Of a DNA stretch of 64,000 nt, positions 3,729 through 16,000 are shown in pieces. The stretch's first letter is position 1; each line of letters starts with the position of its first letter. The notes under the pieces were generated by a model. The model searched no databases and had not been told where the DNA came from. It saw only the letters and a list, made by a program, of their open reading frames with translations. The translations under genes were made by a program, and so were the position numbers. Source of the stretch: an uncultured Gemmatimonadales bacterium (GTDB lineage: Bacteria > Gemmatimonadota > Gemmatimonadetes > Gemmatimonadales > GWC2-71-9); assembly GCA_963779755.1 (NCBI GenBank), contig CAVZZO010000001.1, positions 672,001 to 736,000 of the forward strand, written 5' to 3'.

Positions 3729-4752
3729 CTAGAGAATCCCGCTCTCCTTGAGCCAGTTCTCTACAAGCGAAGGCCACATCGCCACCGGATGTTCTGTGCG
3801 CCTCAGTCCGAAGGCGTGCCCGCCCTTGGTAAAGAGATGGACCTCTGCCGGGACGCCCGCATCATCAAGGGCGCGCGCGTAAACCGTGCTGTTGCAGATT
3901 TCGTCCACGGGGTCATCCCACGCCTGCAACAGGAACGTCGGCGGCGTCTGCGTTGTGACGTGTATGCCGGGGTCGAGGGTGGCACCATCGCGGCACAGGT
4001 GACCCGGGTAAAGCGCGACGGCGAAGTCAGGGCGGCTACTTAGTTTGTCTGCCGCATCCACCGGCTTGTATGTGGGCTCGAATATGTTGCTGGTCTGCGC
4101 GACCAGATAGCCGCCTGCCGAGAAGCCGATCACCCCAATCTTGTTGGGATCAAGGTTCAACTCCTTCGCCCTGGCGCGAACGAGCCTGATCGTTCTTTGC
4201 GCGTCCTGAAGTGCGCGGGGACCTTGGGTGTGATGTGGCAATGGCAATCCTTGTCCCAGTAGTGATTGCTTTTGGGAACGCGATACTTGAGCAAGACGCA
4301 CGTGATGCCTTTGGCGGTCATCCAGTCACATATTTCAGTCCCTTCAAGGTCCATAGCCAAAAGCCGGAATCCGCCGCCGGGGAAAACCACCATTGACGCG
4401 CCGGTATTCCTGCCCACGGGTGGAAAGACCGTCATGGTCGGAGAAGTTACGTCATAGGCTGCGGTCCAAGGGCGCCCCGCGACGACATCCGGGGCTTTCG
4501 TGACTTCAACTCTCTCGGCCGGTTGAGAGACGCCTTCCATATCCGGCGCACCCTTCGGCCAGATCGGGATTTGTTCCAATCCTGAAGGCGGCTGCCAGAC
4601 GCCGGCCTTCCCGACATCCGTTTGTTGCCGGTCTGATGTCGTCGGCCTAGTCGCTTGCGCCGGCTCGGCCCAAGGTTTGTGCATCACGGCGACGCCACCC
4701 GCCAAGCCCGACAACCCCAAGGCGCATAATAGGCATGAGCAAAGGTCGGCAC
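3729..4752 (-). pseudogene. Alpha/beta hydrolase (xylanase/esterase-like), frameshifted
   Basis: VFPGGGF and GFSAGG (GxSxG) motifs split over ORFs 4157-4720 and 3729-4301; AGGAGG RBS before GTG at 4752; may be an assembly error. Confidence 0.8.
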
Positions 4753-9523: not shown

Positions 9524-9901
9524 CTACCGAGCTGAGCCGTCTAGGCACGCTTGCAGCGGCGGTTCAGGTGATCCGAAGGCGATGCGAGCCCGCACATATT
9601 CGCGGTCCAAGAGGGTCGCTACCTCCAGCGTGGTTGAAGCCGTACTGCGAAGATCTGCTATGGAAGGGTCGAGACGATAGTTGACTCGCTGTCGCGCGGC
9701 TGTCAACACGGATCTTACTTGGGTGAGGATGCCAGTGACCGTGTCTCGAACTGGCACGAAGGGGACGGAGACTTCCGCAAGGCGGAAATGCGTGATGTGG
9801 AGGTCCGCTCTTGGTAGAAAGAACTCGATCACAGCGCTCATGGTTGACGCCGTTACGGATGTCAGCTTGGATAGGTCTCTCTTGCCAAACAAGCTATCCA
9901 T
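9524..9901 (-). CDS. Hypothetical protein or frameshifted C-terminus of the upstream protease
   Basis: 125-aa ORF overlapping the protease 3' end, ending before attC. Confidence 0.5.
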   Translation of the reverse strand: MDSLFGKRDLSKLTSVTASTMSAVIEFFLPRADLHITHFRLAEVSVPFVPVRDTVTGILTQVRSVLTAARQRVNYRLDPSIADLRSTASTTLEVATLLDREYVRARIAFGSPEPPLQACLDGSAR

Positions 9902-10749
9902 GAGGTGTCGCGAGTTGTCGAGGAGGTATGCGGCGGAGCAGAGATCCCTCCGGGCACTATCTGCCTGAGCAACGCGACGCGATCCTCGGGCTGCGCTGGG
10001 TGCAGCGTTAGCGATGACTGCGGGCGTGATGCGTTCGCGAAGACCTCAGCGAGGGAACGGGAACTGACAGTGCTGTCCAGAAGTGCAGTGGCATACCGTA
10101 CTGGGACGGCAAAATTCAGCGCTTGGCCGCCCTGGAGGTAGGCCGTCGAGATCGCAATGACCGCCCCAGAATCGTTGAGGACAGGGCCGCCGCTCGAGCC
10201 CGGGCTTATCGGCGCGGATATCTGCAGTAGCTGGCGGCCTTCGACCACGCGATGTGCGCTGACAATCCCGTCCGTGACTGTTTGTGATAGACCGAGAGGG
10301 CTGCCAATAGCAACGATACGGCTGCCCACGGGAGGAAGCGTGGTGCTGGTGGATAACGTCGGCAGACTGGCTCCACGGATCCTGATAATCGCTACATCTG
10401 CGGTTGGATCAGCAGCGAGTGCGGTGACGTTGCTGAAACGCTCGCCTGTTGCCAGAAGGACGGCAGCCGATGTGGCACCAGCCATGACATGATAGTTGGT
10501 GACGACCACTCCATCCGGGACTATAATGAAACCGCTCCCTTGTCCTACTGTGTCACCTCGCGCATCAACAGCGAGGATTGTAACTGTGGCCGGAATGGCG
10601 CGCTTCGCAAGTTGGACGGTAGTTAGAGGGCGCTGGGCTGCTGCCATGGCGCTATAGGCGACAAGGCCGACGAGCACCGCAGTCGTTCTGATCGCTGCTT
10701 GCAAGTATGAACTCCGAAGCGGGTAGGCGCCACTCGGTAGTTGAGGCAA
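9862..10749 (-). CDS. Trypsin-like (S1C/HtrA-type) serine protease; start uncertain
   Basis: GSGFII, VTNYHV, DVAII, ISPGSSGGP catalytic motifs. Confidence 0.88.
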   Translation of the reverse strand: MPQLPSGAYPLRSSYLQAAIRTTAVLVGLVAYSAMAAAQRPLTTVQLAKRAIPATVTILAVDARGDTVGQGSGFIIVPDGVVVTNYHVMAGATSAAVLLATGERFSNVTALAADPTADVAIIRIRGASLPTLSTSTTLPPVGSRIVAIGSPLGLSQTVTDGIVSAHRVVEGRQLLQISAPISPGSSGGPVLNDSGAVIAISTAYLQGGQALNFAVPVRYATALLDSTVSSRSLAEVFANASRPQSSLTLHPAQPEDRVALLRQIVPGGISAPPHTSSTTRDTSWIACLARETYPS

Positions 10750-11306: not shown

Positions 11307-11410
11307 GCCTAACGAAATGCGTTTCAGCCGCGAAGGCGCGGCCCTAGCGCCCGGAGGGCTTTTTTGAGCGGGTGCGCCGCGCCTTCGCCGTCTGCAAACG
11401 CTTGTTAGGC
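11307..11410 (-). other. attC site (104 bp)
   Basis: GCCTAAC-AAGCG-TTTGCAGA...GCTGAAA-CGCATTTC-GTTAGGC. Confidence 0.9.
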
Positions 11411-11709
11411 CTCCCGGCCAGCCGGCTCCGGCGACGTTCGGTCTCGACCCGATCGGCAAGGTACACCTTGAGCAGACTCTGATAGGGGACATCCCGCTCG
11501 TTGGCGAGCAACTTGAGCTCGGTAAGCAGGGTATCGGGCAGCCGGACCGAAATGGCTGTGGACGAAGGCCGGAGATGGGGAAAGCGCATCACCCGTGCCT
11601 TCGACCAATCCACATATTCGGTCGAGTCATGCGTGGCCCAGAAGTCGCGCTCCTCGTCCTCAGTCCGGAAGGTCGGGATGTTCTTCAATGCTCGCTTGGG
11701 CTTGGGCAT
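11344..11709 (-). CDS. BrnA-like antitoxin (RHH/CopG), C-terminus reads into attC
   Basis: IPTFRTEDEERDFWATHDSTEY...AISVRLP...DVPYQSLLK. Confidence 0.88.
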   Translation of the reverse strand: MPKPKRALKNIPTFRTEDEERDFWATHDSTEYVDWSKARVMRFPHLRPSSTAISVRLPDTLLTELKLLANERDVPYQSLLKVYLADRVETERRRSRLAGRPNKRLQTAKARRTRSKKPSGR

Positions 11710-12013
11710 ACTGGTGCCGCTCCTTCCGATTCATGTCCCGGGCCGCGATCACGCGAATCAGAGATCCGCGCACCGTGAAGACGAGGTAGAGCCTCCGGTT
11801 CGCGAGGGTCCGGCCGAGCGCTTGCCACCGGAGCTCGGTGCCGGAGTGCTTCGCATCGAATGCGGCGACCAGAGGTTCCTGAAAGAACGCCTGTTCGCAC
11901 TCCCCCGGCTCCACGTTGTGGCGCGCCAGCACTTTGGGCGCGTTGCCGGCGTCCCATTCAAAGCCGGTGCAGCGGCCCAGAATCGCGTAGGCGTCCGGCG
12001 GCTCTCCCGTCAC
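11660..12013 (-). CDS. BrnT family toxin
   Basis: FEWDAGNAPK...H..ECEQAF...RWQALGRT...VFTVRG..IRVIAAR. Confidence 0.92.
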   Translation of the reverse strand: MTGEPPDAYAILGRCTGFEWDAGNAPKVLARHNVEPGECEQAFFQEPLVAAFDAKHSGTELRWQALGRTLANRRLYLVFTVRGSLIRVIAARDMNRKERHQYAQAQASIEEHPDLPD

Positions 12014-12203: not shown

Positions 12204-12658
12204 ATGTACGCGGATCCTTTCGGGCTGCTTGCCCAGGATTGTTGTATCGAAACGGGGGATTGGCGAAAGGATAACCTGCTTCACCCTGCTGTTACAGCGG
12301 CAAGAGAGACAACCCGATGCTGGGAGTAGCTGTGGGTCTCCTGGCCGTTGCAGGTGGGGCCGAACTGGCTGCTCCCAGGTTATTTGCCGCGGCCACCGCT
12401 GCTCTTCCTAAGGTACCGTTTGAGAAATTCCAGGACTGGGGACGAAATGTTGTCCAATGGGGCCGTGGGGCAGCGGGGGCAATTCAGCGGGTTTCTGAAG
12501 TGACGGCCGAGCAGGCCTCTAAATTGGATCCACAGAAAGTGAAGATGGCTCGCGACTTCTACCAGAAAGCTGTTGATGCTGGCCGAGGGGGAGCCGCCGC
12601 ACCTGAACGAGTAAAGCTGATGGAACGCATTTTAGACCTGCAGCAGAGAACCCATTAG
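12204..12658 (+). CDS. Orphan Rhs C-terminal toxin tip (DUF4951-like), one apparent frameshift
   Basis: Starts MYADPFGL (Rhs DPxGL); removing 2 nt in the GA repeat at ~12305 joins ORF 12317-12658 (WGRG..GA..R...RDFY...ER..LM.RI). Confidence 0.65.
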
Positions 12659-12705
12659 TGGCTCGGTCCGGTCTATTCGAGCATTGCAACACGGAGGAAG
12701 AGCCA

Positions 12706-12953
12706 TGCTGGAAGCAGCGGTCACACTTCGGCTTACGAATAGATGCGAAACTGCGCGGAAGCTCGTGATTGAGCCATGGACCACCGAGTTTCGACTGCAA
12801 CCTGGGCACACTTACGACTTGGTGATATCAGGGGACCTTGGCCTCCCCTTAGAGGTTGAGTTCGAGGACGACGAACTAACCGTATACACTTTCGATTCCG
12901 CCAATGCCTCCTTCAAGATTTCCGAAGGCGGGGCTGAACTTAAACCACTGTAG
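12706..12953 (+). CDS. Putative immunity protein
   Basis: 82-aa acidic ORF directly after the toxin tip, GGAGG upstream; its stop codon lies in the IS end. Confidence 0.55.
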
Positions 12954-13437
12954 GAGCCCGGCCCTGTCTAGCCTGGGGCGCTCGGGGCGCCTCCGGGTTG
13001 TCGGGCCTGAACTCCGAGGGGTCGGGTCTAGTAGGAGCCTCGCGGGCTGCCGCGCGTGGCGGACCTCGGCCGGCGGAAAAGGAAAGTGGTGGGGGCCCCA
13101 CGAGTTCAGCGGAACCCATCGGCTCCAGACCTGCCGCGAGCCGGCTCCCTCGTCGGGCGTCATGCGCCCACGGGAGCAGACGGGGTCACCCCACCGGCTC
13201 CAAGGTGCTACCCGGTCCTTCGATTGTCAAAGAGCGCCGCGTTCCGCGTGCCGGCGGGATCCTGGCACCACCCTCATAGGTCGTTGAGGCTCGGGGCCTC
13301 CCACATCTTCATGGATGCTCTCCGATCCGCGGCCGGGCGGCCAGCAACTCTGTGCGCGGAACTCACCGAAGACGCCGGCGGCTCAAGGCAAATAGAGGGC
13401 GGCCCGGCGCGCACGCGCGGCTCCCCCCGGTCTCCGA
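12950..13437 (-). ncRNA. Putative bridge/seek RNA region (exact boundaries unknown)
   Basis: Non-coding end contains the donor-junction 14-mer (13026-13039) and candidate target guides (13277-13283, 13232-13237). Confidence 0.65.
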
Positions 13438-14703
13438 CTATTCGATCACCACCGGCTCTGCGTGATGCCGCTGGGTCTCCCAGCGCTCCCGGTCGAACGG
13501 CTGGCCCGACTGGAGCACGGCCAGGAGGAGCGGCACCAGCTTGCGGGCCACCGCGCAGACCGCCTTGGTCCGGAGCCCGCCATTGCGGGCCAGCAGGGCC
13601 TGGTAGACCCCGGTACAGCCCCCGGGGCTGGCACCAGCGGCCGCCGAGCAGAAAGAGTTGGCGGCGCAGCAACGGCCGGCCCCGTTTGGACTGCTTGCGC
13701 CGGCCCTGCACCGTGCCGCTGGAGCGCTCGACCAGATTCATGCCTGCGAGTTTCAGCACCTGGCGGGGATGAGTGAAGCGCTCCGGAGCGCCCAGCTCGG
13801 CCACGATCGTGGCCGCACAGGTGGCGCTCACCTCGGGAATGGTGGTCAGCGCCTTGGCCGCGGGGCACTGCTCCACCGAGCGCGGCGATCTGCTGGTCCA
13901 CCTCCGCGAGTTGCGCCCGCAGCAGGTCCCAGCGGGCCAGCAGCTGCTGGATCTCCAGCGCCGCTCGGGAGCGGCGCCGGCCAGGGCGACACTGGTGCGG
14001 GCGGACTCGCGCAGGACGTGGAGCTGCCCTGGGCTCACGTGGCCCCGCGAGACGGACCGCGCCAGGCGAGTCACCGCGGCCGGGGCGGCCGCCAGGAAGT
14101 CCTGCGGCAGCGGCCAGCGCGCCAGCAGGGCGCGCGGCGTGGGCTTGCGCACCTGCGAGAAGTGCGTCAGGAACTCGGGCCAGGCCAGGTCGAGCAGGCT
14201 CTGGAGACGGTTCTTGAACCGGGTTTCCTCGACGGTGAGCCGATGACGGTGGGTGGTGAGCAGCCGCAGCTCGAGATACGGGGGCTGCAGCGCCGGATAT
14301 CCCACGAAGATCCCCAGGCTCACCAGCTTGCAGATCTCGGCGGCATCCTTCGCGTCCGTCTTGTTGGGGCTGTTATCCTCCAGTTCCTTGGCCCGCTTGG
14401 TGTGGGCCGGCAGGATATTGACCAGCGCATAGCCGCGCGCCCGCAGGCACTCGGCAAACGTGAAGCCGTGATGGCCGGCGAACTCCAGCCCCACCAGCAT
14501 CTGGCCGGGCCGGATGCCGGGAAACCAGGCCGTCAACTGCGCGCGGCGGCCTCGAAGCCCGCGCGGCTCACCGGCACTCGGACCGGCTTCGTGCGGCGCC
14601 CATCGGGGCCCTGAGCAACCAGCACGTGGACCCGCTTCGCGGTATCCACGCCTACGTGAACGGGGAACGTGCGGGCATAGGCAGACTTTTCGTCGGGGGT
14701 CAT
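13438..14703 (-). CDS. IS110 family recombinase/transposase (about 4 apparent frameshifts)
   Basis: VGVDTAK, VGLEF, NKTDAKDA (DEDD); LTTIPEVS; LAGMNLVERSSG; SKRGRPLLR; AVARKL. Confidence 0.92.
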
Positions 14704-14789
14704 GGCGCGGCTCCGGGTGGAGGGAATCACAGGAGTCGCGGAAGGAGCTACGGGCCGCGCAGCGGCGTCAAGCGGGTATAGATGTCTAG

Positions 14790-15530
14790 TTAGGTAGCAC
14801 CACGAATCAGACGGCGGCCGTGAGGAGTGAGTTCCGCGTGTCTGACGCTCCCAATCTGGTAGTCCCCGGGACCTCCTGTGGTAATGATTCCGAGGTCTTT
14901 CAAGCCGCGCAAGATCAGATCAAGTCGCGCAACCGGGATGCCCGTCACCTCAAGCACCGTGGTCGTGTGAAGTCGGTACTGGTCTGGCGTCAGGGTGCGG
15001 AACTGGGCAAGTACCGCAGCCACCTCGGCGGCCGAGTCCACATCTGGGAGTAGCGACGGAGCAAGGGCGATGTATGTGCCAGGCACGAGGCGCGTTCGCG
15101 CGATTCCGACAGCGTGATTCAAGTCTGGATCAATACGAATGAAGCCGAAATCGCGAAGATCCTCCGCTGCCTCCAAGTACTCATGCGGCGAAACATCCAA
15201 ATCGGTAATGGCATCCTCTGCTTCAGCAAACTGGAACAGCTGGCTGGCCTCGCGATAGAGGCAGTAGGCCAGCAACCGCAGGGGCGTACCAGAAAGGCGG
15301 ACGAATGGAACTTGAATTGCTTCGAGCGCGGTCACGCGCTCTTCGAGACTGCCAACCCGGACACCGAGTTTCGATACCTGCTCATTCGCTACGCCGTAGC
15401 CGCCCAGGGCGGCAAGACGCGCTACCAAGGACGCCACGCCCGAAATCGGCTCGACAACCAAGGCCACGCCAGTGAGTGTCCACGCAGCGATGGTCGGCCA
15501 ATCGAGGCTCGAATCCTTTGCTGAGGTCAT
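14790..15530 (-). CDS. Hypothetical protein (hydrophobic N-terminus, possible winged-helix domains)
   Basis: MTSAKDSS... 246 aa, GAGG RBS, stop inside R'' ACCTAAC. Confidence 0.8.
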   Translation of the reverse strand: MTSAKDSSLDWPTIAAWTLTGVALVVEPISGVASLVARLAALGGYGVANEQVSKLGVRVGSLEERVTALEAIQVPFVRLSGTPLRLLAYCLYREASQLFQFAEAEDAITDLDVSPHEYLEAAEDLRDFGFIRIDPDLNHAVGIARTRLVPGTYIALAPSLLPDVDSAAEVAAVLAQFRTLTPDQYRLHTTTVLEVTGIPVARLDLILRGLKDLGIITTGGPGDYQIGSVRHAELTPHGRRLIRGAT

Positions 15531-15545
15531 CCCGCCTCGTAGTGC

Positions 15546-15685
15546 TACTAACGAAGTGCGTTTCAGCGGCGGCGCGATGCCCCGCTCCCTCACATCCGAC
15601 GCTTCCTTACCGCGACCGCTAGATGTCCCAGAAATGCACCAGCGGGCTGCAGCACCGTGCCCGCCGCTGCAAACGCTTGTTAGCT
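15546..15685 (-). other. attC site (140 bp)
   Basis: AGCTAAC-AAGCG-TTTGCAGC...GCTGAAA-CGCACTTC-GTTAGTA. Confidence 0.9.
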
Positions 15686-16000
15686 GCCGGCCGCAATGAC
15701 AATTTCGGGTGCGATGACGCTGCCGGTATGTGCGGAGCCCCCGCGCCGGGAGACCGGGCCGCCAACCGGGAGCCTCGGCGGGGCGGGAGAACGCTGGACG
15801 CCTCCGAACCTGCTCGGCGCACCTTCCTTGCCATGGAGCGCCCCGCGGAGAGAAACCTTGGGCGGCATCGCGGAGCCTTCCAGGCGTCCCGCGCAAGGAG
15901 GCCGGTGCCGCCTCACCGCTACCAACCAACTGCAGAGTTCCGGCGGCACCACCAGGCGCCCACCAAGAGATCAGCACTGGGCGGCCCGACTGGCGCGTGC
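15686..16000 (-). other. Gene-less cassette body, diverged copy
   Basis: Homologous to 17950-18262 with frame-breaking indels. Confidence 0.75.

Follow-up and report, generated by a model that had tools for sequence, protein, structure and literature searches.

A decayed IS110-family element and its neighbors

The stretch of DNA analyzed here (64 kb, hereafter the window) carries on its minus strand an insertion element of the IS110 family, ca. 1.84 kb long (12950 to 14788, 1839 nt in the AC register, one of two placements of the ends that are compared below). Homology to relatives begins at its left-end box. The noncoding sequence amounts to 86 nt upstream of the transposase gene (14703 to 14788, minus strand) versus 488 nt downstream of it (12950 to 13437, minus strand, 488-490 nt), and the latter is the predicted place of the bridge or seek RNA in such layouts. 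When five left ends were aligned (window copy, L002, L003, L004 and L008), all opened with a conserved AGAC/GAC followed by a conserved 10-mer. The two ends of the element share a direct repeat of 6-7 nt, and no subterminal inverted repeats were found, since none of the 25 longest inverted pairs joins both ends.

The transposase gene (13438 to 14702, minus strand, ca. 421 codons, stop at 13438-13440) is a pseudogene. Three-frame translation revealed four frame changes, near 14540, 13965, 13875 and 13615, and, as the homologues are unbroken (417-427 aa), this copy must be regarded as dead. The broken frame still matches the IS110 domains PF01548 (E 1e-16) and PF02371 (E 5e-16), and the closest full-length homologue (P0002, 90% identity) passes NF033542, the NCBI model for IS110-family RNA-guided transposases, with 197 bits versus a cut-off of 140. 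Structure matches were to IS621 and ISCro4 in the C-terminal part (for IS621, E 2e-21, with only the C-terminal part aligning). The window copy thus belongs to the IS110 family by descent only, its transposase not being intact.

The element lies between two ORFs. On its left boundary, it adjoins the TAA stop of a 395-aa ORF (14790 to 15977, minus strand), while on its right boundary falls exactly the TAG stop of a convergent 89-aa ORF (12684 to 12953, plus strand). The latter had no homologues in a large protein set except its own record, which is present on four contigs, and is preceded by an ORF with a DUF4951 domain (12317-12658). Further along, there are two small overlapping ORFs on the minus strand (11344-11709 and 11660-12013), which may be a BrnT/BrnA-type toxin-antitoxin pair, and a 295-aa ORF (9862-10749, minus strand) that resembles a trypsin-like serine protease. 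No other copy of the element was found in the 64-kb window or, by DNA search, in a plasmid collection; protein searches of the same collection gave nothing closer than Firmicutes relatives (ca. 32% identity), and these were set aside. The element falls into a still uncharacterised branch of the IS110 family from Gemmatimonadota, marked by a long transposase and a modular downstream noncoding region. No paper on this branch was among those listed by literature searches; Extended Data figure 10 or the supplementary tables of Durrant et al. may already show comparable loops.

Relatives and the modular downstream region

One genome per species was scanned with a 25-protein alignment as the query. 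Forty-four stretches matched, and 12 of them encode a relative. Nine loci (L001 to L009), mostly from Gemmatimonadota MAGs, were used, and three from Sporolactobacillus (L010 to L012, ca. 32% identity) were dropped. L007 and L009 were excluded from the tests on ends because their ends could not be inferred.

The downstream noncoding region is homologous in all nine relatives and is built from modules. Module X (13010 to 13073, minus strand) is present in all nine, and twice each in L007 and L009. Module Y (12961 to 13008, minus strand) is a stem-loop, ca. 90% identical in L001, L003 and L004, that occurs in zero to two copies among the relatives. Thus, L005 and L006 have module X only, the window copy has X and Y, L004 has X and one and a half Y, and L001 and L003 have X and two Y. 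In L007, the arrangement is X-Y-X, with the two X copies 81% identical, and L009 contains an exact 15-nt repeat at a distance of 228 nt. Tandem Repeats Finder detected no repeat of module period in the window copy, L003 or L001; the iterations are visible only by BLAST and by eye. The last 81 nt of the element (12950 to 13030, minus strand) form a terminal noncoding unit that opens with a left-end-like 5-mer and closes with a right-end 9-mer; no solo copy of this unit was found in the 64-kb window. A solo right-end fragment of 190 nt does exist in L006 (1104-1288), 900 nt upstream of the element; it has no transposase gene, includes module X and is 80.5% identical to the attached copy.

Upstream of module X, a multi-hairpin domain with a 10-bp closing helix (13078 to 13223, minus strand) was predicted by RNAalifold from six sequences and shows compensatory changes; it is a candidate for the core of the guide RNA of the element. 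Within the same interval, and thus also upstream of module X, is a terminator-like hairpin with a pyrimidine/T-rich tail (13089 to 13101, minus strand; one found with 0.8 expected). The block at 13224-13321, with a -35-like heptamer at its end, has kept its sequence in 9/9 relatives, including the most distant, and may be a promoter, an RNA scaffold or the 3' UTR of the transposase gene. A sigma-70 promoter scan of the downstream region gave no match, and Rfam at permissive thresholds (12700-15000) gave only two matches, both at chance level. The last 266 nt fold no better than shuffled sequences (z -1.38). The same applies to the X modules, of which only 1/13 beats the shuffles, the window's module having a z of +0.82. 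In seven modules of distant relatives, the minimum-energy folds show, in our own reading, a closing helix around module X that is built from different sequences.

Insertion of relatives at the end of Rhs core domains

In L002, L005, L006 and L008, the left end falls within the final conserved codons of an Rhs core domain, where this borders on the variable toxin part. The sites at this point are L008 2389-2417, L002 2395-2420 and 5094-5121, L005 2167-2193 and 5708-5837, L006 2169-2192 and 5049-5178, L007 2860-2890 and L004 5163-5190. In L007, a second, different IS110-family element abuts the same Rhs point, and one cassette of L004 ends there with no element. Uninterrupted copies of the Rhs motif are found on the same contigs as the inserted relatives, in ORFs that match TIGR03696 to the end of the profile; in L002, by our own arithmetic, the profile ends ca. 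26 nt from the point equivalent to the L008 insertion. We also considered whether the right flanks of the relatives are the remainder of the Rhs core, and tblastx gave nothing convincing. The position of these left ends suggests that insertion may be guided to the exchange site of Rhs toxin cassettes, a by-product of this work that may matter more than the finding on the 14-mer to which we now turn.

An internal sequence resembling the joined ends

The first-pass annotation of the window had singled out a 14-nt sequence inside the element as an exact copy of the predicted circle junction, that is, of the right end joined to the left end. The copy is indeed there, on the minus strand at 13026-13039, and it is the single occurrence in 64 kb even when two mismatches are allowed; the bases flanking it on either side differ from the joined-end prediction, as had been stated. 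It sits within module X, 81 nt inside the right end of the element. Its first nine bases are repeated at the right boundary (12950-12958, minus strand, from a direct-repeat search), forming with 13031-13039 a 9-mer direct repeat with a spacing of 81 nt, the longest direct repeat in the region, and its last five recur at the left boundary (14784-14788). The further copy of the left-end start that had been noticed near 12965-12970 is also real: it comprises 7 nt (core plus left-end start) in the same sense, at 12965-12971 on the minus strand, in the 3' strand of module Y.

To see how much of the 14-mer is peculiar to this element, 13 X modules were aligned and its columns counted against the 12 other rows. 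Positions 13039, 13038, 13037, 13035 and 13026-13029 were identical in 10-12 of the 12 other modules, positions 13036 and 13034 in six, and the central positions 13030-13033 in just one to four. The 14-mer is, therefore, a bipartite box that is constant in the family, with a G-rich half (13034-13039) and an AGAC half (13026-13029) separated by an element-specific linker (13030-13033). This changes how improbable the match is. With 8 of 14 positions identical in at least 10/12 homologous modules, a chance figure of 4^-14 is too generous, and, since the box is constant and the left ends of the relatives also start with AGAC/GAC, the end match carries ca. 5-6 bases of information rather than 14. 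For the last 8 nt of the right end, the expected number of exact internal copies is 0.01 per shuffle, which still makes the one seen here unexpected; with G-U wobble allowed, the same run was reached in 49/500 shuffles and the signal fades. We estimate that the element-specific part of the match would arise by chance about once in 1000, i.e., it is modestly above chance. It should be added that every locus has several direct repeats of 8-11 nt in its GC-rich downstream region. One explanation that we discarded is that the 14-mer is the trace of a recent tandem dimer with an internal deletion, as the bases that follow it are conserved in distant relatives.

The linker showed some further matches in the relatives. 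In L006, the module X linker contains an exact 9-nt copy from codons 3-6 of its own transposase (4178-4186 versus 2508-2516), and in L005 the linker (ca. 4192) resembles the same codons (2508); by our estimate, a 9-nt word common to the linker and some other part of the element is about the chance level. In L003, the linker of module X (1741-1759) is complementary over 9 nt, with a single mismatch, to the final AGAC box (1914-1922), close to the right end, a pairing of a kind that is impossible in the window copy.

Two registers for the ends

It had also been claimed that the 14-mer fixes the ends of the element. This did not hold, as two registers are compatible with the flanks: a shared AC (2 nt) or, one base further in, a shared CTA/TA (3 or 2 nt). 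Both fit, as the crossover bases occur on either side. With the TA/CTA register, the element-specific part would span 12953-14786 (minus strand), with the shared TA at 14787-14788 and 12951-12952. The 14-mer then reads as the right end plus core followed by the core plus left end, and would exceed the true circle junction by 3 nt. The 7+2+5 layout, which had been equated with the donor of IS621, depends on the AC register.

Three lines of evidence, namely uninterrupted targets, right ends of relatives and neighboring stop codons, favor TA/CTA, which we consider the probable register. The left flanks of L008, L005 and L006 could be set against uninterrupted target copies from the same contig or a related one, and the match runs as far as the base that precedes GAC; hence, the element-specific sequence starts at GAC and the two bases preceding it are target. 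The inferred right ends of the window copy, L001, L002, L003 and L004 are all CTA-terminal, and those of L008, L005 and L006 are GA-terminal, which equals the dinucleotide at their own left junction, bearing in mind that the right ends of all relatives were inferred and those of L002, L004, L005, L006 and L008 were chosen with the expected result in mind. The TAG stop of a convergent ORF falls on the three bases that close the inferred right end in the window (12951-12953), L001 (4306-4308), L002 (4320-4322) and L003 (1924-1926); these ORFs (89, 203, 114 and 96 aa, respectively) belong to no Pfam family. In a simulated empty site, the neighboring ORFs remain at 89 and 395 aa with the TA/CTA register, and with the AC register the 89-aa ORF extends to 176 aa, antisense to its neighbor. 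As the 89-aa ORF has no homologues, the argument from stop codons is weak by itself. The general lesson is that, for elements of this kind, the ends cannot be placed from a junction copy seen in a single sequence.

Matches to guide RNA expectations

We searched the downstream noncoding region for both guide forms expected of a bridge RNA, and no clear pair emerged. Of the runs listed as able to pair with the donor top strand (wobble pairs counted), the 12 longest, of 6-8 nt, are confined to the right-end half and leave the left-end start uncovered. The antisense right-donor guide was thus not found among them, in agreement with the first-pass annotation, which had reported no reverse-complement guide. 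The left-donor guide form is present, in the same sense as the left donor plus core, with an exact length of 8 nt (TA register) or 9 nt (AC register).

The first-pass annotation had taken the lack of an end-matching segment in the homologues as a refutation of its proposal, and this is largely what we saw. The last 8 nt of the inferred right end recur internally as an exact copy in 2/8 loci, the window copy and L008; no such copy was found in the other six (L001, L002, L003, L004, L005 and L006), five of which have an unbroken transposase frame. The L008 copy (8 nt, 29 nt upstream of the end) is located in module Y rather than X, and the end of L008 was chosen knowing the repeat. Same-sense copies of the left junction reached 9 nt in L006 (3/500 shuffles) and 7 nt in the window copy (17/500), and were not significant in L002 (46/500), L004 (150/500), L008 (179/500) and L005 (244/500). 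The idea that module X copies the left junction of its own locus found no significant support in a permutation over six loci, as 41/265 derangements equaled or exceeded the score of the real pairs.

On the target side, a 10-nt stretch at 13204-13213 (minus strand) is complementary to the left flank, with nine Watson-Crick pairs and one wobble. It lies in a variable stretch just after a conserved block, and we estimate a probability of ca. 7% for a 9-mer match by chance; it may be a target guide or a coincidence. The corresponding variable stretch of L002 and L008 resembles, by eye, their own Rhs-type left flank.

Origin of the 14-mer

We tentatively favor, at somewhat less than even probability, the view that the 14-mer is an older right-end boundary, retained internally after the element gained one 81-nt noncoding unit. 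The observed base of this proposal consists of the repeats, their positions, their conservation and the variable number of modules in relatives. The unit between the 9-mer repeats starts with the same 5 nt as the element itself and, in the AC register, the left, internal and right junctions all share one AC. The right part of the noncoding region is made of diverged iterations of one bipartite box with a G-rich and an AGAC half: one at 13026-13039, another in module Y with a hairpin inserted and a last one that the element boundary cuts in two and that would become whole only on joining of the ends, the 14-mer occupying the equivalent place in an earlier iteration. The unit might have been added by the element's own recombination at the right-end (left-donor) half-match, and the two right ends, at 13031/13032 and 12950/12951, could yield full and partial circles, as in ISPpu9-ssr9. 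Given that the window copy is dead, such activity must be past or dependent on a transposase supplied in trans. Drift of older boundaries would explain why relatives share the architecture with no exact match. On the other hand, the left-end-like part is just 5 nt long, four of which are constant in the family, and the supposed boundary cuts module X, which is conserved in all relatives, so the accretion would be ancient and the exact identity needs a further cause. The failure of Tandem Repeats Finder to detect a module-period repeat, the lack of a solo unit in the 64-kb window and the near absence of full internal donor pairs in a preprint on expanded IS110 loci (see below) also count against this view. 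Moreover, an internal right-box/left-box junction sharing its crossover bases is exact in the AC register, but in the favored TA/CTA register these bases are doubled, and the internal site is therefore not a clean junction. The retained-boundary view comes close to one of the two options first offered, an internal decoy or secondary donor site, in that it also makes the 14-mer an internal donor-type boundary.

A guide function is the next candidate. The first 8-9 bases of the 14-mer could be the left-donor guide of a bridge or seek RNA encoded at the 3' side, with AGAC as a constant part of the loop and not a second arm. Sense, length and inclusion of the core agree with the IS621 rule, the long noncoding region downstream of the transposase is where IS1111-type elements place their RNA, the exact 8-mer is rare in shuffled sequence (0.01 expected), L008 has an 8-nt copy as well and we read a closing helix around module X, made from different sequences, in the seven folds of distant relatives. 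Yet the antisense right-donor partner was not found among the longest runs listed, the internal copy is absent in six loci of which five have an unbroken transposase frame, the right end of L008 was selected with its repeat already known, and only one of 13 module folds, not including that of the window (z +0.82), beats the shuffles. A terminator-like hairpin upstream of module X, the lack of an Rfam family match and the loss of significance with wobble (49/500) also speak against it, and we regard this explanation as possible, if on the unlikely side. It is unlikely, too, that the 14-mer has no function at all and that the agreement of two GC-rich family motifs in this decayed copy is due to slippage, gene conversion or chance. 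This would suit a pseudogene with four frameshifts, a downstream region in which every locus has several 8-11-nt direct repeats, a box with 8/14 bases constant anyway, the missing match in relatives and a module X that folds no better than shuffles. What it does not account for is that the copy ends exactly at the boundary, with the start of the left end directly after it, and that the element-specific part, by our estimate and inference, has a chance of ca. 1 in 1000.

The other option first offered was a variant donor-binding architecture, with one contiguous same-sense 14-nt arm that reads the whole junction. The identity is complete (14/14) in the AC register, but this is the less likely register, the last four bases (AGAC) are constant in 10-12/12 rows and hence not a programmable arm, and the relatives show no covariation (41/265 derangements, right-end copy in 2/8 loci). 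In addition, in IS621, the complex becomes locked when the handshake bases pair additionally with cognate DNA (Hiraizumi et al.; PMC11208160, PMC11208158), so that a contiguous 14-nt cognate arm would be no obvious improvement. With the first nine bases being IS621-like besides, such an arm is poorly supported and seems to us very improbable. In the TA/CTA register, the 14-mer could alternatively serve, in the sense of the transposase strand, as an RNA splint, with 8 nt for the right end plus crossover bases and a further 6 nt for these bases plus the left end. Such a splint would base-pair with the two integrated ends at once, on the bottom strand of each and including the crossover bases of that end, and keep them together for excision. 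We consider this very improbable; if true, it would be a device for donor-end synapsis absent from IS621, whose excision relies on half-matches across two loops.

Comparison with known IS110 systems

In IS621, the left donor guide runs in the sense of the donor top strand and covers the left donor plus core over 8-9 nt (Durrant et al.; PMC11208160, PMC11208158), and the right donor guide, of 4-7 nt, is antisense to the core plus right donor and located on the other strand of the same loop (PMC11208160, PMC11208158). The window element resembles IS621 in having a same-sense 8-9-nt segment that covers the left donor plus core. As the left guide of IS621 is also in top-strand sense, the first nine bases of the 14-mer are IS621-like. 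The arms had been described as unlike those of IS621; for these nine bases, which match its left guide in sense and length, this was not borne out, and it is only the 5-nt extension that stands as odd. The difference is that the RNA of IS621 comes from the left end and its loop also contains an antisense right-donor guide, for which no counterpart was found here among the longest complementary runs.

In IS1111-type elements, according to Siddiquee et al. (PMC11187229), the seekRNA is encoded downstream of the transposase, and IS110-type subgroups with a downstream noncoding region exist as well. The transposases of IS1111 elements have 330-350 aa and their subterminal inverted repeats 7-17 bp; the same source indicates that an uninterrupted target or a circle junction is needed to set the ends. 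The window element shares with them the long downstream noncoding region, the short left end and site-specific insertion. It differs in the length of the transposase (ca. 421 codons, and 417-427 aa in the homologues, versus 330-350 aa) and in the subterminal inverted repeats, which were not found among its 25 longest inverted pairs.

The view of a retained boundary agrees with two published cases, the first being ISPpu9-ssr9 of Pseudomonas putida. There, the core dinucleotide is also shared at the internal B-A' junction, and sequencing revealed circles of three kinds, with tnp, with tnp plus ssr9 and with ssr9 alone (PMC12288879). Both systems have a transposase module followed by a small noncoding module, each bounded by left- and right-end-like boxes. 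The differences are that the boxes of ISPpu9-ssr9 measure tens of base pairs (43-bp box) versus a left-like part of 5 nt here, that solo small modules occur in that genome whereas no solo unit was found in the 64-kb window, that circles were sequenced there and none is known here, and that the transposase is only distantly related. The second case is a preprint on expanded IS110 loci (bioRxiv 10.64898/2026.08.14.744561), which describes noncoding units that accumulate in tandem beside the transposase, partial circles, and unit boundaries that keep left-donor matches, with full donor pairs essentially absent internally. In the window, both halves match in one register, in contrast to the near absence of full pairs in that account, and the supposed internal boundary likewise retains a left-donor match. 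Should the internal site be able to serve as a second right end, the element would be a natural example of how RNA-guided IS110 elements gain and shed noncoding units at a donor half-site, a question only just opened by the work on ISPpu9 and this one 2026 preprint.
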